The notes below the pieces were generated by a model, which did not search any database, was not told the origin of the DNA, and saw only the letters and a list, made by a program, of their open reading frames with translations. A stretch of 64,000 nt of DNA, taken from contig CM102287.1 in the NCBI GenBank assembly GCA_046563655.1, forward strand, positions 868,001 through 932,000. Direction: 5' to 3'. Shown here in pieces: positions 20,301-64,000 of this stretch. The translations under genes were made by a program, and so were the position numbers. Position 1 is the first letter of the stretch; each line of letters begins with the position of its first letter. The DNA is from Yuukianura sp. NJ FZ-2021. Its lineage: Eukaryota.

Positions 20301-22666
20301 ACAATTCGCTGTTCAAATTATGAGCTGCTCCAATGGTCTGCAGACTGTCTTTGAGAGACGTATTTCCTTTTCTTACTTCATCCACAACGTTCCTCATGAG
20401 CTCGGAAAGCCCACGATTACTTTTGTTTATGTAGTCCACAATGTAACTGCAACATGCGTAAGGATCCAGAATAAATTGTATGTCCATGTTGGACTTCTGC
20501 AGTCGTAGAATCTTCTCGTTGTAGGCATTAATATATATGTCACACGGGCTTCTCTTGAGATATACATGAGGCTTCTTCAGTTTGGATTGAATTACTCTTA
20601 AATACAACGGAAGATCACAAGAAATCGCATCTAGAAAATCGTCAAACGACATTCCTCGGTCAGGCATCTGATTTTCCAAGAACTCTCGATAACTTTGTGT
20701 TGTAGCTTGAGATCTTTGAAAGCTGATGTATCTTCTAAGGGCAAAAGAATCCGAGTTTTGTCCATTGGGAAAAAAGGAATACCGAAGCGACATTTCACTC
20801 CCTTGTGCGTCCTTTTGTAGCAAGTATGTGTATGTCGATGGGTTTGGAGCGATAATAAACCATTGATTGGATCTTCAGAAGTGTAGTTCGTACTGCAAGT
20901 TATCATACTGTCAATAAAAATCGTCACGTCATCATGAGAAGCCTTCTCCGAGTTGAAGATTGGTGCGTCGGAGAGCCAAAACATGGCATGGACATGAGGA
21001 CTTCCCCGGTGCTGGAATTCCACTCTCTCGTAAAAGTGTCGTATTTCATGGGTACCAAAAGGCCCATTTCGGAAGCGGTAAGTTGCCTTCAGTGCGGAGT
21101 AACGATTGTCAAAATAACGTGCGCAAGTGATCGGATCGCGTTGAATGAAAAGCGCCTTTTCAGGATGCGGCAACTGCTCGGCTGCCTCTTCAGAGATTTC
21201 AACGCCATCCAGAATTTTCTTCAGTAAAACAAGTAACTTGTTCCATTTCATTTCTGCGGCGCTGATTGTTAAAACAAAGTAGCGATCCCAAAGGTACGAA
21301 TCATTGCCCGAACTTTGTTACCCTCGTTCTTCCAGTTAGTTCCTGCGTTTCTAATTCCTGCCAGAACTTTATAAGCGTTATCGTCCCTGACGAGTCCATC
21401 GACGTAAGTCTGGTGCAAGACTTGTCCAGCCGTTGGAATTATAAGCTCCCCGTTTACTCTTCTTTTCCTCAAATGTATGGTGCGATTACTTGTAATCCGT
21501 GCAATTTCCAGAGTCTTTGCCATGAACAGCAAAAAATCCACTGACTCTGCCGCTCGTCGGTCCTTGTTTCTAGCAAAGGACTTAAACATATCAGCTCTTG
21601 AGATTTTTTTGCCAGCATACATAGGGTTCAACTTTTGTCCCGCAAACAGTTGAGGAAATGCTAGAAATACAGCATCTTCATCCAGTATAACAGAAACAGG
21701 ACGATGTCCTTCTGCAGGGGCCATACGAATTCCAGAGGTGTCCGTCAACATAGTTTCGTTCGCAGTAGATTCCTCGTAATTGCCGTCCGGTGTTGATTCG
21801 TTCGTGATTGTTAGCGAAGTTTCAAGTTGTCTTTCCAAGCTCAAGTTGGTAGAAGTTACTTCTCGCTCGGAATCCACCAGCCACGATTGTGAAACTGTCA
21901 CACCATGTTGCAAATACAAAGGAGATCTGCATAAAACTTTAGCAGCGTCGAGTATTTTTTGTGGACGTATGTTTCCAGACGTGTAGTTTTTGTCCACATG
22001 CATCTGACGGGCAAGCCGAAGATGAATGACCGCATCATCGGAAAGTAGACGTGGAAGACTTTGAACAATATTAGGTACTGATACAGGAACGTTGACGATA
22101 CGCCCCTTAGTCTTCAATTGACCTAAACACAAAGGGCAATATAAATAAACAAAATCCAATGATGCAGATTTGGAATTACCTTGTTGTCCTTGTACGGCCC
22201 AGATTGCCTGAAACACGTGATAAGGGGAAACTAGACGGGCTTCCAACCGGGTCAGCGACGATACTTCAGTTGGTACAGAGATGAACTGGAGACCATTGGT
22301 TAAAGCTAGCCGAGAGCTACGACCTGATTTCACCGCCGCATAACATGTGATACAAAAGTCTCCTTCTAGGTCATCATAAGAAAACACAATGTTCAGAAAG
22401 TTTTCATCACACTGAGCACAATCTGAGCGTCGTAGGTGCTTAATTGATTTCTTAAACCACAGACCACCGCAGCAGAGACAAGTGGTCGAGGGACCTTCTC
22501 TGCAGCTGCCTTCGAACATCTCAACGACGGACTCCCAGGTTCTATCTTGAAACTGAGCTCGAAAGTTGCGATGAGCCTCGGAGTAAAGAGCTTGTTCTTG
22601 CCGACGGCGGCCATCGTCCAAATTTTGGCGCAGCTCATGCACATAATATACTTCCAATGTTGCCAT
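17350..22666 (-). pseudogene. Helentron RepHel-endonuclease (HUH Rep + PIF1 helicase + APE-like endonuclease)
   Basis: EFQHRGSPHVH (HUH), DPYACCSYIVDYINK (Y2), GGAGVGNS (Walker A K->N), DEISMV, GDFYQLPPV, TIHKSQG, HNVQSL..ETW..YRSP..GDLNVN. Several frameshifts and short introns. Confidence 0.9.
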
Positions 22667-31912: not shown

Positions 31913-34900
31913 TGTTGTGGCTTTTCCTTTGTACATTTTTAGAAATAACAAAAAAACATAGACTTTCAGAATAGCATCTATTTTTAGCCTTAAGCTATAG
32001 GTAGCATCTCAACGGTCCACAAAAAGGAAAATCAACACAGCAACAGAATAGCATTAATATAGGAGTACAAGTCATAGTCTTTACTTACACTTCAATTCAT
32101 TCATTAAGTCAGATTTTACTTTCACACTTTTCAATTCGCAACTTCTCACGATTAAGTTTAAATTAGTAATTAATAAAATCAAAGTCATAAAATCATCGTC
32201 ACTGCTCTCCCAATTGATCATTTGCATCACGAAGCAACATTTTTTGGTGCCGAAAGCCGGGACCTTGAGCGGATGTCATCGGAAGACGACATACAACATC
32301 AACCGACGACAAACGTTTAAGGTCAAATCATCCACTAACATTACAGTTTGGTTAATTGTTGTTCTTTGAGACTGACAGACATGGCAGCAGTATCAAAGAC
32401 ATCATTGGCTGATCTTCTGAAGTTACGTCAGAGCCTGGGTCAACAGATTCGGATGCACCACAAGGTCATAGCTCTGTACAATGAACAGACACCAATTCCA
32501 ACAATCAAAACCGCAGAACGGGAACTGATCAGAGTCAGGAACGACCTCGACGCTCTTCACAACAAGATCATCATCGCCACGACAAACTATGAAGATATTG
32601 AAGATCATTCAGCAACCTACATAGAGTTTGTCACTTTGATTGGTACCATGAACGAAACGCTGATCACAATTCAGCCGGCACCAATTCCATCATCAGTACC
32701 TGGTCCATCAGTTCTTTCAAGTTCTGCAGTCACATCACCACAATGCCCACTCTTACTTTCCGAAGATGTCCTTACCAACTTTCGACGGAAAGTATGAAGA
32801 TTGGCTCACATTTCGCGATTTATTTCGCAGTACCGTAATCAATAACACAACCTTACCCAACAGTGTCAAGTTCTGGTACTTACACTCCGCTCTCAAGGGT
32901 GAAGCTGCTACTGTCATCAAGGGCACTCCCATCACTGATGACAACTTCCAAGGAGCATGGCAGCTGATGGAGGAACGGTACCATAACCGAAGAGAACTCA
33001 TCTTTACACTAATTAGGTTAGGTGATTTTCCTGTCAATTTCCCAAAACTGAAAGATGAAAATTCAACTCAGTTGAGGAAACTGATTGATTGTTTCAAGGA
33101 GTCTCTCACACAGTTAGAGACCCTCAACGAACCAACAGAACACTGGGATTCCATCATCGTCTATCTTCTAAAAGAAAAGATGGATCCAGACTGCCGCCGT
33201 GACTGGACCAAGCAACTAAAGGGCTCAGAGGTTCCGAACTTTTCCGAAACAAAGGAATTTCTGGAAAACTACATTCGGGGACTCAAGTCCACTGGATCTT
33301 CATCGTCCTCTGGATCTTCTGGCCAAAGCAAGGCTCACTCCAGTTTCACGGAAAGTGAACCAAATGAACAATCACACAAGTTCACTTGTCCACAGTGCCA
33401 AGGTGAACACGGCTTGTTCAAATGTGAAAAGTGGTTACAGTTAACAGTGAAAGACAGGTTCAGTGTTGTCAAGAAGAAAAATTTGTGCACTAATTGTCTT
33501 AGTTCCAAGCACAATGTTGGAAAGTGCCAGTCCAAGTACAGATGTCGGACATGCCAAGAGCCACACAACACTTTACTTCATTTTGACACGGCTAAGGCTC
33601 ACTCTACGTCACAACAGAATGATGTGGAGACTTCAACATTGGCAAATCATTGCTCCACCTCCAAAGTACTGTTAAGTACTGCCGTTGTCAAACTGATCGA
33701 CTCAGCAGGCGAATTCCAAGAATGCCGTATCCTACTGGATCAGGGGTCAGAATCCAATTTCATCTCTGATCGCTGTGTGACAAAACTTGGACTTGTACGT
33801 AAGAAATCTAATGTGAACATTGTAGGAATTTCAGGTTCCAATGCTGGGAAGGCACTCGGTCAAGTCACATTTGACCTGTGCTCACGCATTTCCAATTTTA
33901 AAATTCAAGTTAATGCACTAATTTTGCAAAAAGTCACAGGTTTTTTGCCATCTTTCAAAGTCAATCCGCAGAAGTGGACTCATCTCATGAGAATACAATT
34001 GGCAGATCCCAATTACACAAATCCAACAGACGTGGACATTATTCTCGGAGCTGAATTCACAGCATCAATCACACTCAGTGGCAAAATCATTGGTCCACCT
34101 CAGACTCCAATTGCACAGGAGACAACATTTGGTTGGGTCATCTCAGGGCCAACGGGTACAACCAGTCAACCCACTGTTCACGTCAACCATGCCAGTGTTA
34201 ACATTTTACAGAAATTCTGGGAACTGGAGGAACTACCAAAGCGGCCAAACTATACAATCGAGGAGCAATTTTGCGAGGATCATTTCGTCGCAAATCACAC
34301 TCGAAATGAGGAGGGAAGGTACGTCGTAAGGTTGCCACTTAATGAAAACATTTCCAAATTAGGTGACAGCCGCGACATCGCAGTACGCAGACTCCAACAA
34401 GTGGAAAAGAGGCTACGACTAAACCCAATTCATCATCCTGAATACATTAAGTTCATGGATGACTACCAAAAATTGGGTCATATGGAAGTAGCGACAGAGC
34501 AACTTCCACCCGGGTCAAAGGTCGTTTACCTTCCTCACCACTTTGTACTCAAGGAGTCAAGCACTACCACCAAACTCCGAGTCGTTTTTGATGGCTCCGC
34601 AAAAACATCCAAGTGACATTTCACTTAACCAATGCCTTCAGGTGGGTCCAACGGTACAAGGTGACATTTTCCTTACTCCTTCAGTTCCGTAAGTACCCAA
34701 TTGCACTAAAGGGTGATGTAACCAAAATGTACCGACAATTTTTGGTACATAAAAATGATCAATGTTTACAATCGATTTTGTGGCGAAAGTCTCACCTTGA
34801 CCCAATTCAGGAATTTAGGTTGAAGACAATCACCTATGGTACAGCCTCAGCTCCTTTCTCCGCAGTCAGATGCCTACGTCAACTTGCAATCGATGACGGG

Positions 34901-37900
34901 GACAAATTCCCATTGGCTAAAAACGCACTTCTCAACAACTTCTATGTTGACGACTTTATGGGGGGAAGTGAGACAGCGGCAGAAACCATCAAACTTCGTC
35001 AGGAATTGACAGCATTAGTAAGTTGTGCAAAGTTGGAAATCTGTAAGTTTGATTCCAACTCAATTTCAGTGTTAAAATCAATTCCTGAACAATTATGTGA
35101 AATTAACCCTAACATTGATGCCAATTCACAAAATGACTCAAAAGCTTTAGGGGTATCTTGGGACTCAAGGACTGACATGTTCCATTTCTCAGGATATGAG
35201 CCCAAGGTCATGTCCAGGATCACAAAACGGGCAGTTTTGTCAGAAATTTCACGGGTTTTTGACCCGTTGGGATTTTTAGCGCCATTGACCATCGTTGCTA
35301 AAATCTTCCTACAGAAGCTTTGGCTGGAGGCAGTTAACTCTAAGCGCCTACAATGGGACGACGAGTTGCCAGCCGAACTTCAGGAACAATGGTTGCAACA
35401 TCAAGGTCACATGGTCAACATTTGTCAGGTCAAAATTCCTCGGTGCATTAAACCCGCGGGAAACTTAAAAATGGAAATTCATGCATTTTCGGATGCATCT
35501 GAAAGTGCTTACTGTGGTGCAGTTTTTTTGAGAGTATTTTTTCAGAATTCCATCGCAGTCAACCTCATTGCAGCCAAAACCAAGGTCGCTCCAATTAAGC
35601 AACAGAGTCTCCCCAAGTTGGAACTTTGTGGAGCTCATCTTGTATCAAAACTCGTCATGTCAATTTTGGAGTCAACACAAATCAATGCACAAGTCACTGC
35701 CTGGTCTGACAGCGAAATTGTGCTCAAATGGCTCCGCCTACAGTCACGTCAACTAAAAACATTTGTTGCCAACCGAGTCTCGGCCATTCAGGAGATGATT
35801 CCAGCCGATTCCTGGAATTTCGTCCCAGGATTACAAAATCCTGCTGACTGTGGAACTCGTGGGATGACGTCAACTGAACTTTTGAGCTGCGACTTATGGT
35901 GGCACGGACCTTCGTTTCTTCACAAACCTGGAATTACTACGTTTGAAACAACAGACGTAAGTCAAATTCCAGAGATACGTAAGGTTTTGACCTCACAAGT
36001 CGTAAGTGACTACTCAATTCTGTCCAAATATTCAAATTTTAACAAACTGATTCATGTCATGTGCTATGTGAAAAGGTTCATAACAAATTTAAAAGTCCTC
36101 ACAGGCAAAATTCATCCAAAGGTTGTAACTGTCAACGGTCCTCTGACAGTGGAGGAACGGACATGCGCAGTTTCAGCTTTGGTCAAATGGGCGCAACAAC
36201 AGGATTTCCCACAGGAATTGGATGACCTCAAGGTCAAGGGCAAAGTTTCCAACGAATCAAAGTTGGTTGCTCTATCCCCATTTCTAGACAGGCATGGAAT
36301 TCTGCGCATTGGAGGGAGACTTGGCAATTCGTCACTCCCAGAATCTCAGAAACATCAAATTATATTGAACGGAAAAAATCCATTGGCCACTCTCATCATC
36401 AGACACAAGCATATTCAACTCCATCATGCCGGATATCAGTTGCTCTGGTCCACTCTGCAGACTGAGTACTGGTTCCTGAAGGCTCGTATCACCATCCGCC
36501 AAATTCTGCGACTTTGCATGACGTGCAAAAAACTGAAGGTCAAGGTCACAGAGCAACTCATGGGTCAACTTCCAAAGGGCAGAACAAATCCATCACCTCC
36601 GTTCACTCACGCAGGCGTGGATTTCGCTGGCCCCTTCGTACTACAAGAATTGACTGGGCGTGGTAGAAAACACTTCAATGGATATTTTTGCATTTTTGTC
36701 TGTTTTGCAACCAAGGCAGTACATTTGGAAGCAGTCACAGCACTTTCTACGGAGGCTTTCATAGCCACCCTCAAACGTTTTGTCTCCAGGAGAGGATTGC
36801 CAGTCGCAATTTACAGCGACTGTGGCTCTAACTTCGTGGGAGCAGAGCGTGAACTGAGGGAATTGGTTCAAAACCAAAAATTCAACGTCACAGTCAGCGA
36901 CTTTTTAGGTGACAGAGGTGTCCAATGGCACTTCAACCCACCCTCAGCTCCAAGTCAGGGAGGGTACTGGGAAGCGGGTGTGAAAAGCACCAAGTATCAC
37001 CTTCGTCGCATTGTTGGTTCTTCAACGCTCACTTTAGAAGAGCTATTCACTGTCCTCTGTCAGGTGGAGGCAGTGCTAAACTCAAGACCAATTTGTCCTA
37101 TGTCACCAGATCCTACAGATCTGGAACCATTAACACCAGGTCATTTCTTGATTAATAATTCTCTTTGTGCTGTTCCAGATGCTGATTTGACCAATCAAAA
37201 GGAGAACAGACTCTCCAGGTGGCAAAGAACCACTCAAATGGTCCAGCACTTCTGGACGCGTTGGCACAAGGAGTACATCAACTCCTTACAAGAGAAAAAC
37301 AAATGGAGAAGTCCAAACCGAAACCTCGCCATCGGTGACTTGGTCATAATCAAAGAAGATGACACTCCACAACTGAAATGGCGAATGGGCAGAGTCATGG
37401 AGACATTTCCTGGTCCTGATGGACTTGTGCGTGTCGTCAAATTAAACACGAACAAGGATTCAATCAAACGTCCTGTCTCCAAAGTCTGCGTCTTGCTACC
37501 AGCAGAAGATCAACAGAATGATCAACTGGCCATTTACCGCATGAAACGACAACCAACTCAATAGTCAATCCTCAAATCACCATTTGTACCAAGTTTGTAT
37601 CCCAATTAACTGTACTTTAACTTTAATTTTAATCAAACATTAACTTTAGAGTAGTTTCATAACTTAATTTTAATTTTAGCATTTCACATAATTCAATTTT
37701 CAAAACAATCTTTAAATTTCATTTACTTTTCATAGGTTAACTGAAACTCAGCATGCAGAGCCCATTTTCAATTTTAATTTTAATTCTGCACTTAAAAGTG
37801 CAATCGTCATGCATCTCAGATCGATGCCCTACATTTCTCCTGCTGTCTGTCACCTTTCAACAAGGTCATGCAAACGGCAAATCCTGTCAGCTCCAGCAGG

Positions 37901-39550: not shown

Positions 39551-40814
39551 TATGCTAAGTATCCACAACTTAGAACAAAAACAGTTAGTGCTTCATTTTC
39601 AAATGTTGAAGCAGAACAAACAGAACAATCAAATACAAAAAACTAAACAAACCGGGTGTTTACGCTCACCCAATGACAAAAGCAGCGTACACTTTAACTG
39701 CACAGGATGTAAACAAATGCATCCTTGGGCAAAATACCTTAGTCTTTGAAAATTCAAAATTTTCAAAAATTCAAAGTAATCAAACTACTAGCGACACCTA
39801 CGCTAGTAAAGTCAAACAAAATTTAAATTTAAATAAACGGTACCCAAACCTACAGAATACAAGTCGATGAAGGTGCTAACTTTAGCAGCATTGGCTTAGA
39901 ATTTTTAAATGAAGTACAGGAGTTTGTACATAAGAGGTATCGGATTTGCCCAGTGGTGGTCAACACAGCCAATAGTGAAACACAAATTGATGAAATGGTT
40001 GAACTGAAGTTCACCTACAACAATGTTCTCACTATTTGGGGCTTTCACCTAATGAAAGGATTGAGGCCTAGAATGCTGTTAGGAACTGACTGGACAACCA
40101 GAACCCTAAACAAAAAGGAAATTCCAACAATTGATGAAAATTTACCTCTGAATTTGCCAAAGGCTGAGGAGAATGTACCTCGGTTACACAAATTCAAGTT
40201 AACCAATTCTGTCCGACTTCAACCAAAAATGAATTCAAGAATCACGGTTGAGTCAGATCACATTATTTCAGGGTCAGTAATACTGAACCCAAACAGGAAA
40301 CTTAATGAGGCCCATGCCTTCAATCTTATGTTTACTCGACAGTCAGGGACAGCCGTACTGATATATGGCTCACCAATTTAAGCTATTTCTGTGTGACCTT
40401 AGGAAAAGGCACAACTACCGTATTTTCCCAAATAGTACACCCGTTGTACTAATTTTGTTTTCGACTTCTGGGGGTGGTGTACTATTAGGGACCTGGTGTA
40501 CTATGAAGCGGAGAGGGACTGACGAAGGACGGATTCGGAACTCCGGAGGAAACCGAGTAGTTAGGGATAGGTAAAGTAGGAGGACTATGTTCTCTGAGTG
40601 TAGGATACAGAAATATTCTTTTTCACATTTTTCTGTAACGGGAGTCTCTTCCCAACCTTCAACAAGTGAACACATAAATAAAAGTCTATTCCATTAGTTC
40701 ACTGTTGTTGTCACGACCAGTTCATTTCTCAGTTGATGTTGGCTCAATAGGAGAACCTAGCATTGTTGACCTCAGGTCAAATCTTCTCTCCAGGAAGATT
40801 CGACCTGAACTGCA

Positions 40815-41728
40815 GATTTCCCTGAAGAGGAAATCACAGTATCGGTCTCAGGGACTGCGGGGTTGTTGCAGTGGCGGCCGAAGGGATCATTCCAGTGATG
40901 TCATGTTGTCAACTGAAATGAAAGGTCAAGAGGTCAAGTGAGACTTTCCGGTAGAGAAAGGCTCAATTGAAGACAATTGAAGAAGGAGACGAGATAAATT
41001 GATGAGAATTTCCCTGTAGAGGAAATTCTGACCTACCAGCTGATTGATTTTCCTGTAGAGAAAAGCAATCCAGCATTGGAATAAATCGAAAACCTGCCTG
41101 TATTTTCCAGTAGAGAAAAGACGGGTCAGGTCAAAGGTCAAATAAAGGCACGGGTGCTGCCAAAAATTTTCCAAAAATCGTTTTCACGCACGGGTGCTGC
41201 CCGATTTTTTCAAAAATTCAAACACTTTGAAATTTTCCTGAAGAGAAAAGTTCAAAGGTCGAAGACACCAAACCAAAGGACAGAGAGCAATTCGTCGCTC
41301 ATTTTGAAAAATCCTGAAGAGATTTTTCGAAAAACTGAACCGATTTTCCTGTAGAGAAAATCGTTCACTGTCCAATTGATGCCAAATTAAGAGGAGGAAG
41401 AGATTCGCATAACAACCCTGACAAAATAAAGGCACGGGTGCTGCCAAAAAATTCCAAAAATCAGACATTACGCACGGGTGCTGCCCAAAATTTTTCAAAA
41501 AGTTGAAATCACGCACGGGTGCTGCCCGATTTTCCAAAAATTACCAAATACTTTGATTTCCCTGAAGAGGAAATCGAAAATCCAAGGAGAGGAACAAGTT
41601 GTAACTTGGCGTTGAAGCTCCTGAAGAGAGCATCGACACCAAGACCACCTCAAAACCAATTACAACAAACAGAATCCTAAAAAACAGCTCAGTTAACTGG
41701 ACTAATTGAAATTCCTGTAGAGAATTTC
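40815..41728 (+). repeat. Array of 11 stem-loops with a conserved CDGWAGA loop (U5 / 5' leader)
   Basis: Loops start at 40822, 40949, 41014, 41053, 41108, 41238, 41314, 41349, 41562, 41621 and 41715, each closed by its own complementary stem. Confidence 0.8.
41147..41527 (+). repeat. Five copies of GCACGGGTGCTGCC in the gypsy leader
   Basis: Copies near 41148, 41188, 41432, 41472 and 41513. Confidence 0.8.
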
Positions 41729-41746
41729 GTTTTCCAGCATTAACTA

Positions 41747-43387
41747 ATGAGCAGAAGGGAGGTGAGAGATTTAGAACAAAACTCTCGTGCATTCCTACGT
41801 GGATTCAACATGGACAGGCAAAACATAAATCCAATTCCTGAAGAACCAATTGATGTTGATGATCTTGAAGGTGACATGCAGATTCACAATCCAGTAGATG
41901 ATGATGATGATTTTTCAAATGGAGGTTCAGATGCAAGTTCCGTTGTTCAACGAACTGTAGCAAACCAAGTTCCTATCGTCTCATCTGCTGCTTCAACTAT
42001 CACAACCCAGGCTCCAACAGCAATATCAGGCATGCGCACTACGGGTTCTGGTCTATCCAGTTCACGTACTGTACCGAGTGGAGCAGATTATGTTCGCATT
42101 CCACAATCAAGTCAAATTAATGAACAAAATATTGCGAAATGGATCAATGAGGGATTAGCTGCTATGGTTTCAGAAATTGTGAATCCTATACATACGGCTC
42201 TAACACGATTGGATAGACGCATGCACAGAATGGAAAGTGGCAATGCAAATCCTACTGGCAGCCAATTCTACCAACCACAATTCAACCAGAGACAGCAAAT
42301 TAATCAACCTCAACAAGATTTCCTAAATGCTCTGCAAGGAATTCGCCTGACAACAGTCAGTTCTGCAATTCCAATTCCGAAGTTCAATCATAAGAAAACA
42401 ACAGCTTCAGACTTCTTGAAGGATGTTGAACGATATTACAGAGCTCAACAATACAATGAAAGTGACTACTTGTATTTGGTCAAAAACATTTTGCCAAATG
42501 ACGCAAAGGAATGGTGGGACCATGTACGTCACAGAATCGATGATTGGGATGAATTCAAACAAGAGTTTATGGAAAAATACGACGGAGCCACCAACATCAT
42601 GGAACGAATGAGGCTTTTGCAAACAAGACTTCAGCGTGCCCATGAACCAACAGAGTCTTTCATTTTTGAAATGATGAAGATGTCAAAGGTCGTTTATCCA
42701 AATGAACCTACAGAAATGGCTGTTGAAAGAACAAGAAATGCCCTATTTCCACAGTTGCGACTGGGTTTAGGAGCTCAAGAAATTAAAACACCGGAGGCTC
42801 TAGTCAAAGCTTGTCACGTGGTTCACCGTAGCCTAGAAGCTAACGCCAGAATATACAGAGAGAAATTACGCCTACCGCCGTTGAGTAAGCATGAACTTGA
42901 AGAATCTAAGAAAAATCAAGGCCCCAAACAAAAATCTGAAGCAAAGTCAACTGAAAAAACGGAGGCTGAGTCGTATCGCGGTTCAACTTTCTTTCGTGTA
43001 CAAAGGGGATTCAATCAAAGATATAATTCAAATTCAAGACGTCCATTCCGCGGCGGCAGAGGAAATTTCCCTGGAAGAGGGAATTTCACTTATCGCGGTG
43101 GAAGATGGAACGGAAATCCAAGAGATGACAAACAAAATGACAAACCTCAAGAAAAAAAACCAAGTCAAAATCCATCTGACAAGAACAAACTGGCCAACGT
43201 CCAATGCATGAAATGTAAAGGCTTTGGTCATCTTACAACAATGTGTCCAAACAAAACCGGATTGGCACTTCCCGCTCATGATGAATGGGAAACGGAGTAT
43301 GAAGAGGAATACTACCAGGAAGAGCCAATGGATGATGAAAGTACCAATCAAAATCCAGATTTAAACTCCAAAGGGAGACACCAATAA
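41747..43387 (+). CDS. gag: Gag (capsid + RGG-rich region + CCHC knuckle), 546 aa
   Basis: IPKF..AKEWW..WDEFKQEF capsid motif; CMKCKGFGHLTTMC. Confidence 0.9.
   Translation: MSRREVRDLEQNSRAFLRGFNMDRQNINPIPEEPIDVDDLEGDMQIHNPVDDDDDFSNGGSDASSVVQRTVANQVPIVSSAASTITTQAPTAISGMRTTGSGLSSSRTVPSGADYVRIPQSSQINEQNIAKWINEGLAAMVSEIVNPIHTALTRLDRRMHRMESGNANPTGSQFYQPQFNQRQQINQPQQDFLNALQGIRLTTVSSAIPIPKFNHKKTTASDFLKDVERYYRAQQYNESDYLYLVKNILPNDAKEWWDHVRHRIDDWDEFKQEFMEKYDGATNIMERMRLLQTRLQRAHEPTESFIFEMMKMSKVVYPNEPTEMAVERTRNALFPQLRLGLGAQEIKTPEALVKACHVVHRSLEANARIYREKLRLPPLSKHELEESKKNQGPKQKSEAKSTEKTEAESYRGSTFFRVQRGFNQRYNSNSRRPFRGGRGNFPGRGNFTYRGGRWNGNPRDDKQNDKPQEKKPSQNPSDKNKLANVQCMKCKGFGHLTTMCPNKTGLALPAHDEWETEYEEEYYQEEPMDDESTNQNPDLNSKGRHQ
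43360..43366 (+). promoter_or_regulatory. -1 ribosomal frameshift heptamer T-TTA-AAC
   Basis: In gag phase; the -1 frame is open into pol (LQRETPINTSMCVL). Confidence 0.7.
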
Positions 43388-43395
43388 ACACCTCA

Positions 43396-46300
43396 ATGTG
43401 TGTTCTCCCAATTCTCAACCGAATATCCAGAGGTGTACCTACAATCCAAGCTACTTCAAATCAATTCAAATTCTCTGCACTCTTGGACTCAGGGTCTAAG
43501 TTTTGCATCATGACGGAGCAATTGGCAAAAGACACCAAATCAAAAATTTCAAAATCAGAAACTTCTGTACTTCACGGATTGGCGGGGAAAGTACAAACAA
43601 TTGGCAAAGTCAAACTTCAATTCAAAATTGGAAATCGATTAATCAATTGGCAATTTCAAGTAGTGGAGAAGCTTCCAGTCTCTTGCATTCTTGGAGCTGA
43701 CTTCATTCAGAAAAACAAAATTCTTTTTGACTTAGACGAATCAAAATTTTGGTTCAAGGAGGAGCCAAACCAAACATATTTCATCAGAGGATTTCATGAC
43801 AAGAAACCCAAGCTTACATTGTCAGTCACATCTTCCGCATTCGAATTTTCCAGTAGAGAAAAGTCGATTGACGATCGTGTGAAAGAGATCCTAGACAAAT
43901 TCCCAAATGTTGCAAGAAAGGATGGGAAGTTTGGACGAACCGATGTCACTTACCATGTCATTGACACTGAAGGTCCACCAGTCAAACAACGTCCATACAA
44001 AACTTCGCCAATGATGAGAGAAATTATCAAACAAAATGTGGAAATTCTAGAAAAAAATGGAATGATCAGACCATCCAGATCACCCTATGCATCGCCAGTC
44101 GTTCTTGATCAAAAGAAAAATGGTCAGTGGAGGCTCTGCATTGACTACAAGCGTCTTAATAAACAAACAAAAGACAACGCTGGACCGATGCATAATGCTC
44201 ACACAATTCTAAGACAAATTCCAGCAGGTTACTGGTATTCAGTCATCGACCTTCAGGCTGGATATTGGCAAATCATGCTGTCAGAAGAAAGTATTGAAAA
44301 ATCCGCTTTCATTACAGAAGATGGACATTGGGATCTACTCGTGATGGGATTCGGATTGAAGAATGCTCCAAAAACATTCGCAGCATTAATGAACATTGTT
44401 CTAAAAGATGCAATTGGTAAATACGTTCATGTATTTATTGATGACACCATCATTTTCTCAAAAGATTTGGAAACTCATCTCAAGCATATTGAAATGGTCA
44501 TGGAGAAACTCAATACCGCAAATCTAACAATCAACTTGGAAAAATCAATTTTTGCCAAGCGAAGAGTTCCATTTCTTGGACATACAATTGGAGAAGACGG
44601 ATTGAAAAAGAATTTAGACAAAATGGAAGCTATTACAGACTATCCAAAACCTCAATGTGTCAAGGACGTACAGCGATTTCATGGCATGTGTCAATGGTAC
44701 TCTACATTCATTGAACACTTTGCGCAGAAGGCTGAACCCTTGTACAAACTTTTACGAAAAGGAACCAAATGGAATTGGGGTGAAGATCAAGAAAAATCGT
44801 TCCAGACTCTCAAAAAAGACATTTGCAATGAAGTGATACTCAAAGAAGTCGACTATTCCAAACCAATTATCCTCAAATGTGACGCATCCGATATTGGCTT
44901 GGGCGCAGCGCTGGTCCAAGCTATAGATGAAAAGGAACGGCCAATACTTTTCATCTCCAAAATTCTGAAGAAAACAGAACGGAGTGCACACATTTATGAG
45001 AAGGAAGTCTATGCAATCGTCTGGGCGTTAAAAACTCTCAAACACTATCTGCAAGGTCACAGTTTCAAAATCTACACAGACAGCAGAGCAGTCAACTACA
45101 TCAAAGGACTTAAAGACTCAAAACCAAAATTCATGAGATGGGCTCAAGAAATTGATCGCTGGAATGCGACAATTGAATTAAGAAAAGGCAGAGAGAATGT
45201 CGAGGCAGATGCTCTCTCACGGGCGCCAGTTGACAGTCACAATACAGAAGACATGGATGATCCTGAAGAGATCATCTATACTCCTGTATGTTTCTGTTAT
45301 GATACGCCGACATGGAGTCAAATCAAAAAAGAACAAGAAAAGGACATTGAAATTTCACGTCTCAAGAAATTGCTTTGTTATGACCCTTCAAATTCCAAGT
45401 GCGCACACTTCGTAGTTGAAGATGGAATAGTGAAGCGTCTAGTCGAGATTCCGCTCAAGAGAATCAACAAGTACTCTCTCGCAGATACTTCCGAGGTTCA
45501 CTCATTAGTAGCTGAAACTCAAATTCAAAAAATGGAAATTCCGGGTTTCCAAAAATGTACATCCTGTGCCGAGGAACAACGTCCAGTTCAGTCAGCAGGG
45601 ATCGTACCAGAGTCAAATCAAACCAAAAAGTCAAAACAGAAGTTAGTTTGGCAAAAAATCAAGATTCCAGTTATTCCAAAGTCACTCCAAAATGAAATTC
45701 TGAAGATATTTCATGATGCACCAGAGGCAGGTCATCCTGGAGTTAAGAAGACAAAGGAAAAAGTCAAAGATAGATGTTTCTGGAATGGAATGAATAAGGA
45801 CATTGCCGATTACGTCAAGTCGTGCAAAATTTGTCAAACGACAAAGCCAGACAACACCCTACCATCTGGGTTGCTTCAATCAACAGATTACGCTACATCA
45901 GTTTTTTCTACACTACACATCGATTTTCTAGGCCCCATGGTACCTAGTTCAAGAAGAAACAAATTCATTTTGGTCGTAATCGATGAATTATCCAAATGGG
46001 TGGAGCTATTTCCCATGACATCGGACACATCAGCAAAAGTTGCAGAAGTTTTAGAAGATTCAATATTTTGTCGATTCGGAGTTGCCAAAGTTATCCTTTC
46101 TGACAATGCGAGCCAGTTCAAATCCAAAATAATCAAAAAATTGTGCAAACAATGGAGAATCCAACATCGTTTCATTAGCCCATACCATCCACAGCCAAAT
46201 CAAGCAGAAAGAGTTAACAGGAATCTAAAGGCAATGATTCAAGCATACGTCGAAAATAACCACAGAACTTGGGACGTTCATCTTCAAAAATTCGCATTTG

Positions 46301-46929
46301 CACTGAGAACTTCAATAAATGAATCGACAAAAGTTACACCAGCTCTTTTGAACTTAGGCAGAAATTTGCCACTTCCGTTTGACAGAAATTTGGAAGCCGA
46401 AGGAAATACAAATTTTGACGAAGAAAGACAAAAATTGACAGATTTACCCGAGAAACTACAAGAAATAATCAAATGGGTACAAGAGAACATGGAGGAGGCA
46501 CATGAGAAAAATAAGAAAAATTACGACATTTCTCATCGAGAAGTTACATACGACATTGGGGATTTAGTCTTGGTCCGAAATCACCCAATTTCAAAGAAGA
46601 TCGATGCGGTTATGCAGAAACTTGCAAAACGATGGCTTGGCCCTTTCAAAATTACATCAAAAACCGCAGACGCAAGCTACGAGTTAACAGATCCAGTCAC
46701 AAACAAGAAGTTCGGGAAACGTCACGTTTCGGAGTTAAAACCATTTTTTGTTCGAGAAGAAACTATGTCAGAAATCAAGAACAATGACGTTCCAAGAAGC
46801 CAACCAATTACCAGGAAGTTACGCGTGAAGAAACCAACAAGTGACATTCCCACAAGCCCAGCAGTTACCAGAAAATTACGCGAAAGAAAACAAGTAAATT
46901 ATAGGTCTTTAGCAGGCCTACGTCATTAG
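43396..46929 (+). CDS. pol: Pol (PR-RT-RNase H-IN)
   Basis: LLDSGS, WRLCIDYKRLN, FGLKNAP, FIDD, CDAS..EKE..TD..ADALSR, H..GH..C..C, HIDF/SDN/AER, WLGPF. Confidence 0.95.
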   Translation: MCVLPILNRISRGVPTIQATSNQFKFSALLDSGSKFCIMTEQLAKDTKSKISKSETSVLHGLAGKVQTIGKVKLQFKIGNRLINWQFQVVEKLPVSCILGADFIQKNKILFDLDESKFWFKEEPNQTYFIRGFHDKKPKLTLSVTSSAFEFSSREKSIDDRVKEILDKFPNVARKDGKFGRTDVTYHVIDTEGPPVKQRPYKTSPMMREIIKQNVEILEKNGMIRPSRSPYASPVVLDQKKNGQWRLCIDYKRLNKQTKDNAGPMHNAHTILRQIPAGYWYSVIDLQAGYWQIMLSEESIEKSAFITEDGHWDLLVMGFGLKNAPKTFAALMNIVLKDAIGKYVHVFIDDTIIFSKDLETHLKHIEMVMEKLNTANLTINLEKSIFAKRRVPFLGHTIGEDGLKKNLDKMEAITDYPKPQCVKDVQRFHGMCQWYSTFIEHFAQKAEPLYKLLRKGTKWNWGEDQEKSFQTLKKDICNEVILKEVDYSKPIILKCDASDIGLGAALVQAIDEKERPILFISKILKKTERSAHIYEKEVYAIVWALKTLKHYLQGHSFKIYTDSRAVNYIKGLKDSKPKFMRWAQEIDRWNATIELRKGRENVEADALSRAPVDSHNTEDMDDPEEIIYTPVCFCYDTPTWSQIKKEQEKDIEISRLKKLLCYDPSNSKCAHFVVEDGIVKRLVEIPLKRINKYSLADTSEVHSLVAETQIQKMEIPGFQKCTSCAEEQRPVQSAGIVPESNQTKKSKQKLVWQKIKIPVIPKSLQNEILKIFHDAPEAGHPGVKKTKEKVKDRCFWNGMNKDIADYVKSCKICQTTKPDNTLPSGLLQSTDYATSVFSTLHIDFLGPMVPSSRRNKFILVVIDELSKWVELFPMTSDTSAKVAEVLEDSIFCRFGVAKVILSDNASQFKSKIIKKLCKQWRIQHRFISPYHPQPNQAERVNRNLKAMIQAYVENNHRTWDVHLQKFAFALRTSINESTKVTPALLNLGRNLPLPFDRNLEAEGNTNFDEERQKLTDLPEKLQEIIKWVQENMEEAHEKNKKNYDISHREVTYDIGDLVLVRNHPISKKIDAVMQKLAKRWLGPFKITSKTADASYELTDPVTNKKFGKRHVSELKPFFVREETMSEIKNNDVPRSQPITRKLRVKKPTSDIPTSPAVTRKLRERKQVNYRSLAGLRH

Positions 46930-47267
46930 TTAAGTCAAAATAATACTTCATTATTAGGTAGGAATATATTCAAATTGTTATAGTATAAATCATAATGTTA
47001 ATAGATTTATAATTTTCCTTTATTATTTCATAATTCATTAATAATTAGTTATTTCTATTCATTCATAATCGTACTGAAATAGTATAATTCCAGTATTTAG
47101 TTGTTAGATTTAATGTTAAGTAAAGTAAAATCGCAGGTTGACGTTACGCAGTTTCCGCTAAATCAGATTATTAGTTATAACCTCACACGCCAGCGCCAAC
47201 TCACACTCATTTCTCTAACCATCTCACATGCTTTCTAGATCCAGCACAGCACAGTCGGGACATATAC

Positions 47268-47403
47268 TCTAATTTCCCTGTAGAGGAAATTGGAATTCAA
47301 AAACTGAAAATCTCCTGTAGAGAGAATTTCGGATTCAAAAAACGTTCAACTGATTTTCCAGAAGAGAAAATCGGTGTTGACTTCTCTGTAGAAGAAGTCG
47401 ACA
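47268..47403 (+). repeat. Four tandem CWGWAGA-loop hairpins directly upstream of ORF3
   Basis: Loops at 47278, 47315, 47359 and 47386; the last stem ends at the ORF3 ATG. Candidate branch point CTAAC (47215) and acceptor TTTCTAG (47238) lie just upstream. Confidence 0.8.
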
Positions 47404-60169: not shown

Positions 60170-63100
60170 TGTACATGACCCCGAACTACAATAAAACAAT
60201 GGGCCTGAAGGGCCTAAACCGAAGGTACTGGGGAAAGGAGCGGGGCAAGCCACTACCTGGCCTATGACCACTACCTGGTCATGGCCACTCCTGGCCAAGG
60301 GCCACTAACTGGCCCGAAGGATGCGTAGAGTGTCCATTGTGACCTTACTGTGACGGCGGAGTATTTTCCCCACCGTCAGAGGATTAGGAGGGGTCCGCAC
60401 AGCCGCAGCAGAGGAGGAGAGCAGCAGAGCCACGAGGCAGGAGCACCACACCGCACCACGCCACACTTTAGCTTTTAGTTCATTTTAGTATTTAGATCTT
60501 TATTCTAAGAATAAAGATCAGTTCTCTTTCTGTCCTACACGCGAGCAGTCATGATTCCAGATCCTTCTTAGAGTTGACACGGGGGTCAACTCTACATTGG
60601 CGACGTGACAGGCGACCTCCAATCCAGAAGGTCAAGTCGAAGCCTTCGAGGTCAAGATCAGAGAGACCTCGCTCCATACTCGGCAGCAACCTCACCTTTA
60701 GCAATCGAGGGACGGATCAACGGACGAACGGACACATTTTTGGTACATCGAGGGTACGTTTAGTTAATTGGGGACGCAGCGTCAACAGGCAGCGATCCCA
60801 GCGCAGCGATTGTTGGTTAGTGCGCGTAAAGTCAGGCTAAGTTACATTCGGTGACCTGGACATGCATCAGTGAGGCATGAATCGTTCTCTTTTTCACATT
60901 TTCCTGGTAAAATCAAAGTTAAACAATAAGATTCGCCCATGATCTGCCTAGTGCTATGTCATACGGTATTGTCAGTACACGTATCCTAAAGTTCAGTATG
61001 GAATCGACATAAAACCGTTTTCTAAGGTAACGTATAGTAAAGTAGAGTTACGAATTGGCCTAAAAACGTGGTATAACGTGGCGTGTAACAAAATGGCGTC
61101 GTGAGCATGCAGAGTCAGGTTATCAGCATCAGTTTCATTCAGTAGTGAATCGAGGTCACCGGAAATTCCTTATTAGTAAAAGTAATTCAGAAAGACAGAA
61201 TCTATGAAATGTAATTAGAAATTCTTTCTCTCATACAATCTTAAAGTTGAATGGAAAGAGACGCAACGTAGAGTAAGTTGCAGTCTCTCATTTTATCTTG
61301 TGGACATGGTTAGTGATTAACTTTTCAGTAAGAGACACAGCGTAAAGAAGCAGTTGTCTCAACAAGTAGGTTACAGTAAGGCATAATTCTACAGTTTGTT
61401 CAATGATTCGGAGTTATTAATTTGTTTTTGAAATTTTTTGGTTTGAGTGATTACTAGTGAACAGTTATTAAAGTAAATTGAAGTTTATCTGTAAATGAGT
61501 GACGAGCACGCACAGCTACGTCGAACTAGAGCTGCTAGAGCAGAGAACAGAGATAGAGTAAGACAAGCACAGAGTCAAAGTCAAAATCAAATTCAAGGTG
61601 AAATTCAAAGTCAAATAGAAGAAGACGATATTTTTTCACAAAATCTTTTCGAAATGGCTGACGATGCAGTAAGTAATGTTCAAGATGAGGGTGATGATGC
61701 TCCATTGTTGCCAGCTTCCCTTATTAGACAGTTAGGGCTCCAACCAGCAGGGGTTAGTGCTCTACAACGATGGGTCAATGATCTTCCAGAGACTAGGAGT
61801 AGAAGAGGCGACGCGCATCCCAGCGACGCTTCTAGATTGCACAATTCAGATTCAGATTCAGATGAAAGTGAGAAAGTGCAAGGAAAGAAAAAAGTTTCTA
61901 GCAAATTGCCAAAAGTTCATTACACGATCACAGGGGTTAATCCAAACATTCCAGTTCCAGTCTACGATTATAGAAAGCGAACTGCAGCTTCTTATTTGTT
62001 AGATGTCGAGTCTTATTTTCAAAGTCAGAACTACACGAAGGACAAATATTTGTATTTGATCAGGACTATTATGACTAAAGAGACGAAAGCTTGGTATGAC
62101 AATGTCCGAGATGACATTAAGTCGTGGTCACAATTCAAAAAGAGTTTTATTGCAAAGTATGACACAATCGAAGAAAAGGAATTCAGAGCTAGGTTGTTAA
62201 TGACCAGACAGCAGAAAGTTACAGAATCTGTTGAAAGTTTTGTCTGGGAAATGGTGACTCTTAGCCGTCAGGTTAATCCAAAAGAGGAAATGTTTCGTAT
62301 TGTCAAACGTTGTCGTGATGCTCTGTATCCACAAATCAGATGTTTGGTAGGTTATAGCCAGAGTTGGACTCCAGCTGACCTAATTAATGAAGCCAAAAGA
62401 GTCATCTATGACATTAAGGCAGAGGATAGACGCAAGAATGAGGTTACAGAGCTTCCTCCAGTTTTCACAATTCCGGTAGAAAACGAATTCAACCAAGTTC
62501 AGTCAAACTTTCCGAATGAAAACAAGCAGAAAAGTAATAATAGAGGTCAGAATTCAATTCATAGAGGAAATAATGGAAACAGAGGTCCAAACAATTATGG
62601 TAGAGGTCAAGGTCATTCCGGCCCAAATTCTTACAATAACCAAGGATTCAGACAACAGAATCAGCAAGGTCAGAGTCAGAATCAGCAAGTTAGTAGCGCT
62701 GAGGCTCAATTTGGTAGTTACCAAGATTTTCCGCAAAGTAACAGAGGTCAGAACTCGAGAGACAGAGGTACACCGCGAGGTAGAGGTTACCCAGAGGTTC
62801 CCCAGTTTAGAAATCCAACTGCTAACAATTATCGTACAAGTAGAGGGAACTTACAATGCTATATATGTCAGGATTTTGGTCATTTTGCGAGGGAGTGCCC
62901 GCAAAACAATACAGTTGGAATGGTGATGCAGCGAGATCAGAATTTTCAGAATTTCGAAAATGTTAGACAGGAAAGTCAGAATCATTACATTGAACCAGAT
63001 ATGTCCGCGGGACAACAGAACAGCCAAGGGCCGCAGCAGAGAGAAACTCAAAATTTTAGGGACGACGCGTACACAAGCGACGTCCCACAGTACAGGGAAC

Positions 63101-64000
63101 CGAGAAATACAAGTTTTGCTAATGAACAGGTTCAAATGAGGTCTAATGGTCGTGACTATTTAAACTATTAAAATCAAAAAATCAAAAATCAGAATAGGCT
63201 TTAGTTTGTATTATTTAGGGCATAAGTAGGGTTGGTGTATAATTTAGAAGTAATTAGCTAGGTATTACATAGGGAATAGATTTATTTCCATGATTTAGAT
63301 TTAGGTATAGTTTAATGTTAGTTAAAAATTTTGCAGAATAGTACTTCTGGTTAATAGATTTAAAAGAAAAGGTAATTGTTACGGCGCGTAAAGCCTTCAA
63401 TGAAACTGAAAAGAAGTTGTTCATGTCAGAAACAGAAAGTTCAGGAAGTATGAGTTGAATTCATTTAGAAAAGTATAGCTTTGACAGAAAGTTTACATTA
63501 GAATAGACGTATAAGCATAACTATGGATGAAACTAGAATTAAAATTCAAAATAGGAATCAAATGAGAATTACAAAAGTTAAAATAGTGGCAGTTGCACTA
63601 TCCAGAGCTCCAGTTAAAGCTTTCAAAAATGATTAAAGTTACTTAATAGATGAAATCGAAATTATGGAAATGCTTAGGATGGGACGACGCGAGTGGCGAC
63701 GACCCAAGAAATTTTGTAAAGTTTTAGAGTGTAAGTTAATTTAGAAAGCAGAGAAGATGCTCAAAGAAAAGATTTAGAGAATTTGAAAGCTAGAATTAGA
63801 GCTTAACAAACCGCAGATGGGTTTAAAAGAAATCATGCAATGTAGAAATTATTTGATGAAAGATTTAAAATCCTGTTTAGGATAGTGCACTTAAAAAGAA
63901 TATGAAAGAATTGCGGAAGCGCAAAGTGGGAAGATGACCCCACAAATGGGCAGAATTAGGTCCAAAAAAGCGGTATTACAAACTAAAGGTGTTTTGTATT
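60170..64000 (+). mobile_element. 5' part of a Ty3/gypsy element (LTR ending 60596, PBS 60598)
   Basis: TGTA...TACA, AATAAA at 60510, TGGCGACGTGAC PBS, gag downstream. The LTR start is uncertain and could be ~50891, left of the Maverick. Confidence 0.7.
61495..63171 (+). CDS. gag: Gag, 558 aa, related to the gag at 41747
   Basis: IPVPVY..TAASYLLDVESYF..YLYLI..KAWYD..WSQFK, CYICQDFGHFAREC, terminal TTTAAAC at 63159. Confidence 0.88.
   Translation: MSDEHAQLRRTRAARAENRDRVRQAQSQSQNQIQGEIQSQIEEDDIFSQNLFEMADDAVSNVQDEGDDAPLLPASLIRQLGLQPAGVSALQRWVNDLPETRSRRGDAHPSDASRLHNSDSDSDESEKVQGKKKVSSKLPKVHYTITGVNPNIPVPVYDYRKRTAASYLLDVESYFQSQNYTKDKYLYLIRTIMTKETKAWYDNVRDDIKSWSQFKKSFIAKYDTIEEKEFRARLLMTRQQKVTESVESFVWEMVTLSRQVNPKEEMFRIVKRCRDALYPQIRCLVGYSQSWTPADLINEAKRVIYDIKAEDRRKNEVTELPPVFTIPVENEFNQVQSNFPNENKQKSNNRGQNSIHRGNNGNRGPNNYGRGQGHSGPNSYNNQGFRQQNQQGQSQNQQVSSAEAQFGSYQDFPQSNRGQNSRDRGTPRGRGYPEVPQFRNPTANNYRTSRGNLQCYICQDFGHFARECPQNNTVGMVMQRDQNFQNFENVRQESQNHYIEPDMSAGQQNSQGPQQRETQNFRDDAYTSDVPQYREPRNTSFANEQVQMRSNGRDYLNY

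Follow-up and report, generated by a model that had tools for sequence, protein, structure and literature searches.

The question raised by this locus is what a short hairpin is, and what it does, when it recurs with a nearly constant loop and ever-changing stems throughout one transposable element. The locus lies in a 64,000-nucleotide stretch of the genome of Yuukianura sp. NJ FZ-2021 (assembly GCA_046563655.1, contig CM102287.1, positions 868,001 to 932,000 of the forward strand); this whole stretch is called the window, and positions are counted from its first letter. Judged from its sequence, the host element is an intact Ty3/gypsy retrotransposon on the plus strand, with long terminal repeats (LTRs), a primer binding site (PBS), gag, and a pol gene in the order protease (PR), reverse transcriptase (RT), RNase H (RH) and integrase (IN). 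The hairpins stand before gag, inside pol and before a third open reading frame (ORF3). Our results support a multicopy, strand-specific, structured RNA module that is selected for its pairing and for five of its loop bases, because the stems covary, the wobbles are of the G.U and not the A.C type, the copies are spread without similarity in their flanks, and all 17 fold. An initial annotation had proposed an RNA recognition element; this interpretation is supported in kind.

A hairpin module repeated 17 times

We scanned by script for the loop CDGWAGA closed by a stem of at least 4 bp, with G.U pairs allowed. In the element (40400-49800) there are 18 such sites on the plus strand, namely 17 distinct copies and the 3' LTR twin of hairpin 1, and none on the minus strand. 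The whole window has 20 on both strands together; the two outside the element are 4-bp stems at 18557 (+) and 585 (-). The motif had been expected to exceed the random level, and it does: 300 dinucleotide-preserving shuffles of the element contain on average 0.16 sites and at most 4, against the 18 observed. The bare 7-mer is enriched as well, with 93 matches versus 44 expected.

The 17 distinct sense copies are listed here with their covariance model score and their predicted folding energy.

40812-40838, plus strand: hairpin 1, in U5 of the 5' LTR, loop CTGAAGA at 40822; 31.4 bits, -7.5 kcal/mol
40939-40965, plus strand: hairpin 2, loop CGGTAGA; 34.9 bits, -8.1 kcal/mol
41004-41030, plus strand: hairpin 3, loop CTGTAGA; 36.0 bits, -9.7 kcal/mol
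41043-41069, plus strand: hairpin 4, loop CTGTAGA, A.G mismatch at pair 6; 38.8 bits, -2.5 kcal/mol
41098-41124, plus strand: hairpin 5, loop CAGTAGA, A.G mismatch at pair 6; 33.7 bits, -4.3 kcal/mol
41228-41254, plus strand: hairpin 6, loop CTGAAGA (position 4 is T in contigs of other copies); 37.7 bits, -3.1 kcal/mol
41304-41330, plus strand: hairpin 7, loop CTGAAGA, stem AAAAATC/GATTTTT, pairing over 41302-41332; 32.7 bits, -6.7 kcal/mol
41339-41365, plus strand: hairpin 8, loop CTGTAGA; 37.5 bits, -7.0 kcal/mol
41552-41578, plus strand: hairpin 9, loop CTGAAGA; 40.0 bits, -9.2 kcal/mol
41611-41637, plus strand: hairpin 10, loop CTGAAGA, GCTC/GAGC followed by an A.A mismatch and five further pairs; 33.7 bits, -9.0 kcal/mol
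41705-41731, plus strand: hairpin 11, loop CTGTAGA, ending 16-18 nt upstream of the gag ATG; 35.0 bits, -5.1 kcal/mol
43841-43867, plus strand: hairpin 12, loop CAGTAGA, between PR and RT at pol residues 149-158; 37.1 bits, -5.3 kcal/mol
45253-45279, plus strand: hairpin 13, loop CTGAAGA, 10-bp stem, between RNase H and IN at pol residues 620-628; 34.4 bits, -10.2 kcal/mol
47268-47294, plus strand: hairpin 14, loop CTGTAGA; 39.2 bits, -9.5 kcal/mol
47305-47331, plus strand: hairpin 15, loop CTGTAGA; 33.5 bits, -5.7 kcal/mol
47349-47375, plus strand: hairpin 16, loop CAGAAGA (most contigs of other copies have T at position 2); 38.2 bits, -9.2 kcal/mol
47376-47402, plus strand: hairpin 17, loop CTGTAGA, with the single T-A closing pair of the set, pairing to 47403; 35.7 bits, -11.2 kcal/mol

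Eleven copies fall in U5 and the leader, two in linkers of pol and four before ORF3. Ten of the 17 stand in the leader from the PBS to the gag ATG (40888-41746), U5 holds one, and the pairing of hairpin 17 ends at 47403, directly before the ORF3 ATG at 47404. Every hairpin that the initial annotation named was found where it had been placed. That annotation had counted sixteen copies; their recurrence stands, while the number has to be raised to 17 distinct sense copies, since the one at 45253-45279 had been overlooked. Likewise, its 11 copies before gag, four at the ORF3 ATG and a twin in the 3' LTR are correct, but pol contains two copies and not one.

In the loop, positions 1, 3, 5, 6 and 7 (C, G, A, G and A) are invariant in all 17 copies. 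Position 2 is T in 13, A in three and G in one; at position 4, 10 copies have T and seven have A. The loops thus read CTGTAGA (7), CTGAAGA (6), CAGTAGA (2), CGGTAGA (1) and CAGAAGA (1), and the closing pair is C-G in 16 of the 17. We also considered 3' splice-acceptor sites, made of a pyrimidine arm and YAG, and rejected them, as loop position 4 is never the C that would make the best acceptor.

Stem pairing and the folded strand

All 17 copies align without gaps as 10 + 7 + 10 nucleotides, with at most one internal mismatch each. Stems that appear short resume after a single A.G or A.A mismatch, so that every copy is about 10 bp long and the shorter lengths quoted earlier do not hold. The earlier description of stems that vary and still remain complementary does hold: 92.4% of the 170 cells of the 10-bp helix are paired, compared with 63.8 +/- 2.6% when the 3' letters are shuffled, and none of 500 shuffles reaches the observed value. 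As a control, sliding the partner by 1-3 columns leaves 35-58% paired. Changes on both sides are seen at 9 of the 10 stem pairs (48 cells). Some stems are fully swapped and perfectly paired, as in AAAAATC/GATTTTT, GATGATC/GATCATC, GCTC/GAGC and GACTTCT/AGAAGTC. Further, a core GATTTTC/GAAAATC is common to many stems, so part of the covariation signal comes from common descent.

The pairs also tell the strands apart. The stem cells comprise 147 Watson-Crick pairs, 10 G.U and no A.C, the latter being what wobbles of the opposite strand would look like. Stems are longer on the plus strand, up to 12 bp versus 7-8 bp on the opposite one. The presence of G.U without A.C, the single orientation of the 17 copies and the asymmetric loop together point to plus-sense RNA as the folded form of these hairpins. 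In all 17 copies the predicted minimum-energy fold is exactly the expected hairpin (-2.5 to -11.2 kcal/mol), and when the 1-kb leader and the stretch before ORF3 are folded in silico, most of the hairpins appear there too.

Spread of the module within the element

When the spacer before ORF3 is compared by blastn with the LTR and leader, similarity is confined to the hairpins, with nothing in the flanks. A segmental duplication of the leader to the position before ORF3 is ruled out, since the similarity stops at the hairpin edges.

The two pol copies sit in linkers. Hairpin 12 lies in the hypervariable, indel-rich linker between PR and RT, and hairpin 13 in the linker between RNase H and IN, over a half-conserved acidic peptide. 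The loop begins at a different codon position in each, which argues that the repeat is not at the peptide level and rules out a peptide repeat.

Further copies in the window

A covariance model of the 27-nt module was trained on the 17 copies and run over the window with filters off. The training copies score 31-40 bits, which is high by construction. Outside the training set the model finds the 3' LTR twin of hairpin 1 (31.4 bits) and a reverse copy in each LTR (29.2 bits, E 5e-5). Elsewhere in the window it finds a gag site with 19.6 bits and the opposite-strand reading of hairpin 3 with 19.1, and the rest reach at most 15.3 bits. The additional sites are as follows.

40777-40803, minus strand: reverse-oriented copy in the 5' LTR, loop CTGGAGA; 29.2 bits, E 5e-5
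49684-49710, minus strand: twin of the reverse-oriented copy, in the 3' LTR
49719-49745, plus strand: twin of hairpin 1, in the 3' LTR
43061-43088, plus strand: weak and doubtful look-alike in gag, loop TGGAAGA; 19.6 bits, E 0.022

The reverse copy is the core of a long U5 hairpin at 40772-40808 and 49679-49715, just upstream of hairpin 1. Read on the minus strand, this long hairpin has 15 contiguous pairs (one of them G.U), the loop CTGGAGA and -22.9 kcal/mol; on the plus strand it has one A.C mismatch, the loop TCTCCAG and -20.2 kcal/mol. The plus-strand loop is complementary to the family loop except at its centre. A kissing contact between TCTCCAG and the CTGWAGA loops would have 3 + 3 pairs around a central mismatch and is too weak to claim.

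Two further kinds of candidate were rejected as members. The site at 45693-45715 has a T.T closing mismatch, scores 12.9 bits and lies over the conserved integrase peptide EILKIFHD, which makes a coincidence likely. At 23039, 30519 and 38841, hairpins with the loop TCGWAGA are repeat copies of one sequence in other elements, occur at about the chance level and are missed by the model. These three plus-strand hairpins, GCAYG-TCGWAGA-CRTGC, lie in repeated LTR-like sequence around a BEL/Pao element; their last five loop bases, GWAGA, match the family, probably by chance.

Other copies and relatives of the element

The element family is multi-copy in the sequencing runs of two organisms, as judged from contigs. 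Conservation in these other copies was assessed from the 40 best-supported of 1047 single-letter differences. Three of the 40 lie in hairpins, all at free loop positions: 41241 A>T (hairpin 6, loop position 4), 47360 A>T (hairpin 16, loop position 2), which restores CTGAAGA in most contigs of other copies, and 49732 A>T (3' LTR twin, loop position 4). The free loop positions make up about 36 of about 9,400 bases, so that 0.15 differences would be expected there versus the three found. The differences at 41241 and 49732 indicate that A and T interchange at loop position 4 of the same hairpin between copies.

Abundant contig variants skip most of ORF3, from 47408 to 48770 or from 47420 to 48763, with a few other letters between. 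Because such contigs align up to 47408, they keep the four hairpins before ORF3, and an intact ORF3 is thus not needed in cis. Further internal deletions, in pol, are seen among the contigs of other copies.

We also looked for relatives. A search with Gag of metagenome and viral contigs gave pattern matches only and no relative. A 19-nt hairpin pattern met 91 loci in metagenomes (263,718 bases), with one match each and no cluster; these loci contain 107 hairpins with the loop CNGWAGA and a stem of at least 4 bp, 91 by construction and 16 extra, which we take as chance. A Pol-profile scan of viral contigs gave 62 loci, four of them gypsy-like at 33-36% identity and the others weak (22-29% identity, on 7-9-kb contigs). 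In the four gypsy-like contigs (27,706 bases) the covariance model reaches at most 12.3 bits. The closest Pol proteins are 41-55% identical.

The host element and its surroundings

The main features of the element are listed here.

40504-40870, plus strand: 5' LTR, 367 bp, TG..CA ends, AATAAA at 40677
40872-40888, plus strand: putative PBS, starting with TGG one base past the 5' LTR, read from the sequence
41747-43387, plus strand: gag, with an Arc/Retrotrans_gag-like capsid, an RGG-rich stretch and one CCHC knuckle
43396-46929, plus strand: pol, PR-RT-RNase H-IN, in frame -1 relative to gag
47404-49482, plus strand: ORF3, with a DEDDy 3'-5' exonuclease, an HRDC domain, a long linker, a CCHC knuckle and a basic tail
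49412-49778, plus strand: 3' LTR, carrying the twins of hairpin 1 and of the reverse copy

The two LTRs are 94-97% alike over repeat blocks, and the element is flanked on both sides by a 4-bp duplication, ACTA. The surrounding sequence is itself a repeat that hosts the element, with GGTGTACTA...TTAGGGAC motifs on both sides (40440-40503 and 49779-49800), and there are contigs that show the ACTA insertion point empty. There is no tRNA gene in the 64-kb window. With general tRNA numbering, the conserved T-arm positions appear to be better matched by the PBS-like sequence if the tRNA 3' end is taken without CCA, which is curious beside a gene for a 3'-5' exonuclease.

In the gag frame a slippery heptamer, TTTAAAC, stands at 43360-43366, 19 nt upstream of the gag stop. 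The pol frame (-1) is open from 43339, and a possible stem GGGAGACAC ... GTGTGTTCTCCC lies 3' of the heptamer. From this arrangement the TTTAAAC at 43360 is likely the -1 frameshift site for Gag-Pol.

Gag, which also has the RGG stretch, and ORF3 thus each carry one CCHC knuckle; the similarity of the two knuckle regions is marginal (E 0.02 in one comparison). The ORF3 exonuclease (PF01612, E 1.5e-24; HRDC, E 2.8e-10) appears intact, with all three exonuclease motifs present, and the closest proteins in the protein collection are of the Rrp6/RNase D type at about 30% identity. The last 71 nt of ORF3 fall within the 3' LTR. Within ORF3, at 48971-49036 (+), Rfam gives a Hammerhead type I match below threshold, with 26.4 bits against a gathering score of 34. 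It retains the CUGACGAG box but has GAGA in place of the GAAA box and a poor stem II, and is therefore probably inactive.

The leader contains other repeats. The motif CACGGGTGCTGCC occurs on the plus strand at 41149, 41189, 41433, 41473 and 41514, five exact copies compared with 0.02 expected. It lies in two larger repeat units (41140-41216 and 41424-41541), is invariant and shows no covariation; going by sequence it could represent either a DNA site or another RNA motif. At 40924-40936 and 41129-41140 the leader also has direct GGTCA repeats like those of nuclear-receptor half-sites, one of them reading GGTCA-A-AGGTCA. There are nine such repeats in the window, across several transposable elements, versus 0.38 expected. 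In general the window is dense in transposable elements, including a Helitron-like PIF1 helicase (17227-22666, -), a BEL/Pao element (32766-37564, +) and a gypsy gag (61495-63171, +).

Possible function of the hairpins

The reading that we favour, with a probability of roughly 0.4, is that one of the element's own CCHC-knuckle proteins, Gag with its C-terminal part or perhaps ORF3, would dock on the hairpins in a multivalent manner, and that the hairpins would together form a repeated packaging or assembly signal. The hairpins would then act in cis, as stem-loops of the genomic (plus-strand) RNA. Their five fixed loop bases C1, G3, A5, G6 and A7 would be read by a protein, while the stem would need only to pair; loop positions 2 and 4 would be spacers that avoid pairing within the loop (position 2 is never C, position 4 never G or C). 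The reader would most likely be the C-terminal RGG/knuckle part of Gag, possibly also ORF3 through its similar knuckle and its basic tail. Each site is weak (-2.5 to -11 kcal/mol), but many of them together could capture element RNA selectively and with high avidity, and the captured RNA would enter a Gag particle or ribonucleoprotein, so that the array would act as a dispersed packaging or assembly signal. Protein binding, the identity of the binder and the packaging outcome are what we infer here.

We favour docking because the leader is the canonical place of the retroviral packaging signal Psi and because the zinc knuckles of nucleocapsid (NC) proteins read exposed G and purine loops. Structured plus-strand RNA does lie in this leader between the PBS and gag, as in a Psi-type signal. 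A further reason is that repeated short structured motifs have been described in print as packaging signals (PMC8206606). Retroviral packaging signals are described as lying between PBS and gag (PMC5035971, PMC8876502), and purine-rich loops as Gag sites in mouse mammary tumour virus (PMC8096270).

Several points weigh against this reading. The main weakness is that the structural evidence comes from one genomic copy and a partial view of other copies; the covariation is drawn wholly from paralogous copies inside one element, and 7 of the 10 G.U cells are at one stem position and so are not independent events. None of the 40 best-supported differences lies in stems or fixed loop bases, but about 1.8 of 40 would be expected in constrained positions by chance, so that this zero is not significant and the view is partial. 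The four copies before ORF3 would also sit on any subgenomic ORF3 mRNA, which would blur the selectivity for genomic RNA and points equally to translation control. One reverse-oriented copy per LTR is not predicted by a plus-strand packaging signal. Finally, such hairpins are missing from the leader of the other gypsy element in the window, whose Gag is 31% identical, so the array is not a general feature of the clade.

Translation control is the first alternative to be considered. Protein-bound hairpins in 5' untranslated regions (UTRs) could act as operators that switch the translation of gag and ORF3, as the RNA-phage coat-protein operator does, or the iron-responsive element (IRE) with its protein IRP in a 5' UTR. 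Fifteen of the 17 copies lie in two non-coding stretches directly upstream of open reading frames, the last leader hairpin 16-18 nt before the gag ATG and the last hairpin before ORF3 reaching to the base before its ATG. Upstream ATGs are present at 46995, 47113 and 47229, as is a branch-point-like ctaac with a pyrimidine tract and an AG ending at 47238; these ATGs and the acceptor-like sequence suggest that the start of an ORF3 mRNA lies shortly upstream of the four hairpins. The low stabilities would fit as well, in that any effect would depend on the bound protein. However, two strong copies are found well inside pol, far from start codons and in a gene reached by -1 frameshifting and not by initiation, and one copy lies in U5. 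By analogy with these precedents operators are conceivable, but we consider them unlikely. Quite unlikely, going by the sequence, is a role of the hairpins as address tags for ORF3, the two-part system of the initial annotation, in which knuckle and tail would hold the Rrp6/RNase D-like exonuclease on the element's own RNA, so that it could process 3' ends or be carried into particles. In ORF3 an apparently intact DEDDy exonuclease and an HRDC domain are indeed combined with an NC-like knuckle and basic tail, and four hairpins abut its start codon. ORF3s of the DEDDy type are described in the bdelloid elements Juno and Vesta, with no assigned function (PMC5408684). On the other hand, the contigs that skip 47408-48770, and with it most of the exonuclease and HRDC, keep their hairpins, and the likeness of the Gag and ORF3 knuckles is marginal. 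We rate as very unlikely, again by analogy, that the hairpins mimic tRNA anticodon arms and recruit or titrate a host reader of the anticodon loop, such as a synthetase, a modifying enzyme directed at G34 or G37, or the ribosomal decoding site. In tRNA loops position 32 is a pyrimidine (here C), position 33 a nearly invariant U, position 37 a purine and position 38 an A. The hairpins have the 7-nt loop with C1, G6 and A7 invariant and GAA or GUA at positions 34-36; CUGUAGA is presumably the anticodon loop of eukaryotic tRNA-Tyr(GUA). CUGAAGA is identical to the anticodon loop of yeast tRNA-Phe (PMC3923128). CUGUAGA also contains UGUAG, given as the PUS7 consensus (bioRxiv 10.1101/2022.10.25.513650), and a viral leader offers a precedent in the binding of GlyRS to the poliovirus internal ribosome entry site (PMC3384309). 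But the loop match was noticed post hoc, U33 is present in only 13 of the 17 copies (three have A and one G), and the A/T flip at loop position 4 (position 35) between copies would swap Phe for Tyr identity. Further, stems and closing pair are unlike the printed tRNA-Phe sequence (PMC3923128), and Rfam finds no tRNA-like fold. If true, mimicry of this kind would couple translation, priming or packaging of the element to the host tRNA machinery.

The remaining two explanations do without a folded, functional RNA. The hairpins could be undecayed remnants of a small palindromic unit that was repeatedly duplicated, and the core shared by many stems does speak of shared descent. Remnants, however, would hardly show double changes at 9 of 10 pairs with 92% of the pairing kept, nor five loop bases fixed in 17 of 17 copies while two neighbouring positions vary. 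Copies also stand in frame within two pol linkers of an intact reading frame, and the 40 best-supported differences avoid stems and fixed loop bases in other copies; we find a lack of function highly improbable. By analogy, the hairpins might instead be palindromic double-stranded DNA sites for host transcription factors in a leader enhancer. The leader does have further repeats resembling DNA sites, namely the five copies of CACGGGTGCTGCC and the two direct repeats of GGTCA, and each LTR has one reverse-oriented copy. Recognition of half-sites does not require arms that differ and stay complementary, though, and the central seven bases are asymmetric, with 17 of 18 distinct copies (LTR twins excluded) in one orientation. 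With 10 G.U wobbles versus no A.C, and with copies inside pol, such DNA sites are scarcely credible to us.

Comparison with known systems

Retroviral Psi stem-loops, such as SL1-SL4 of HIV-1 and the conserved-loop hairpins of gammaretroviruses, are read by the NC zinc knuckles of Gag and resemble the present hairpins in being stem-loops of the plus-strand leader between PBS and gag. They differ in that here one 27-nt module with a 7-nt loop is repeated 17 times, with copies in pol linkers and before an accessory reading frame. Conserved purine or G loops, covarying stems and a Gag CCHC knuckle are further points in common (PMC5035971, PMC8876502, PMC8096270). The repetitive or dispersed packaging motifs described for plus-strand RNA viruses share the many short hairpins with a common loop, variable stems and avidity (PMC8206606). 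There the binders are coat or N proteins, while here it would be the Arc-like Gag of an LTR retrotransposon. In the MS2 type, many short hairpins bound by coat protein are spread along the genome.

The likeness to lambda boxB that had been suggested goes less far. BoxB has a 5-nt GNRA-like (GNRNA) loop, a Watson-Crick closing pair and a stem of about 5 bp, and is bound by the basic, arginine-rich peptide of the antiterminator N. Both are short hairpins with a purine-rich loop, and the string GAAGA occurs in both. All 17 loops here are 7 nt long, with two extra bases on the 5' side, and a GWAGA pentaloop would have loop base 2 pair with the first base of the 3' arm, a register that breaks the stems; we therefore reject a boxB-type hairpin. 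What stands of the earlier proposal is a structured and selected RNA module, as argued by covariation, wobbles, modularity and folding; what falls, on loop geometry, is the resemblance to boxB.

Other known hairpins were likewise tried and rejected. The Smaug recognition element has the loop CNGG N0-3, while position 4 is A or T in all 17 sense copies and only the reverse LTR copy reads CTGGAGA. A hammerhead core (CUGANGA ... GAAA) is contradicted by T at the place of a conserved A (core position 6) in 10 of 17 loops, the lack of a stem II and no Rfam match at the hairpins. The IRE has a CAGUGN hexaloop and a C bulge, and here the loop has 7 nt, there is no bulge and Rfam gives no IRE match. 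At a permissive threshold Rfam finds no family at any hairpin.

Mimics of anticodon arms are known, for example the thrS operator and the tRNA-like element of HIV-1. The arms of tRNA-Tyr(GUA), presumably, and of tRNA-Phe(GAA) (PMC3923128) share with the hairpins the 7-nt loop and the two commonest loop sequences. They differ in the U at position 33, which is not invariant here, in their unrelated stems and in the tRNA-like fold, which is lacking around the hairpins. Another gypsy-type element, Drosophila gypsy, also has a dozen or so copies of a short motif between its 5' LTR and gag; this is the Su(Hw) array of its leader, which consists of double-stranded DNA sites for a zinc-finger protein. 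In contrast to that array, the present hairpins point to RNA by their complementarity, their strand bias and their G.U wobbles.

For ORF3, the nearest comparison is with bdelloid Juno and Vesta, through which it is already known that LTR retrotransposons can have an ORF3 with an RNase D/Rrp6-like DEDDy exonuclease (PMC5408684). Some of these ORF3s are described with a Cys/His zinc motif (PMC5408684). All Juno, Vesta and TelKA families have a dUTPase between PR and RT (PMC5408684), while the present element gives no dUTPase match. The main text of PMC5408684 makes no mention of a hairpin, stem-loop, leader, UTR, PBS or tRNA. We found no description of such hairpin arrays in the open-access literature, by which their absence is not proven.

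Significance

To our knowledge, cis-acting RNA signals, including those for packaging, are almost unknown for LTR retrotransposons outside yeast and vertebrate retroviruses. Here the signal can be read straight from the sequence, as a 27-nt module with five fixed loop bases that occurs 17 times. The module offers a probe for binding studies, a covariance model for genome scans, and a candidate tag by which the RNA of an apparently intact multi-copy element might be followed or captured. Further, the role of the DEDDy exonuclease ORF3 in retroelements is described as open (PMC5408684), and it would become testable if the knuckle reads the hairpin.

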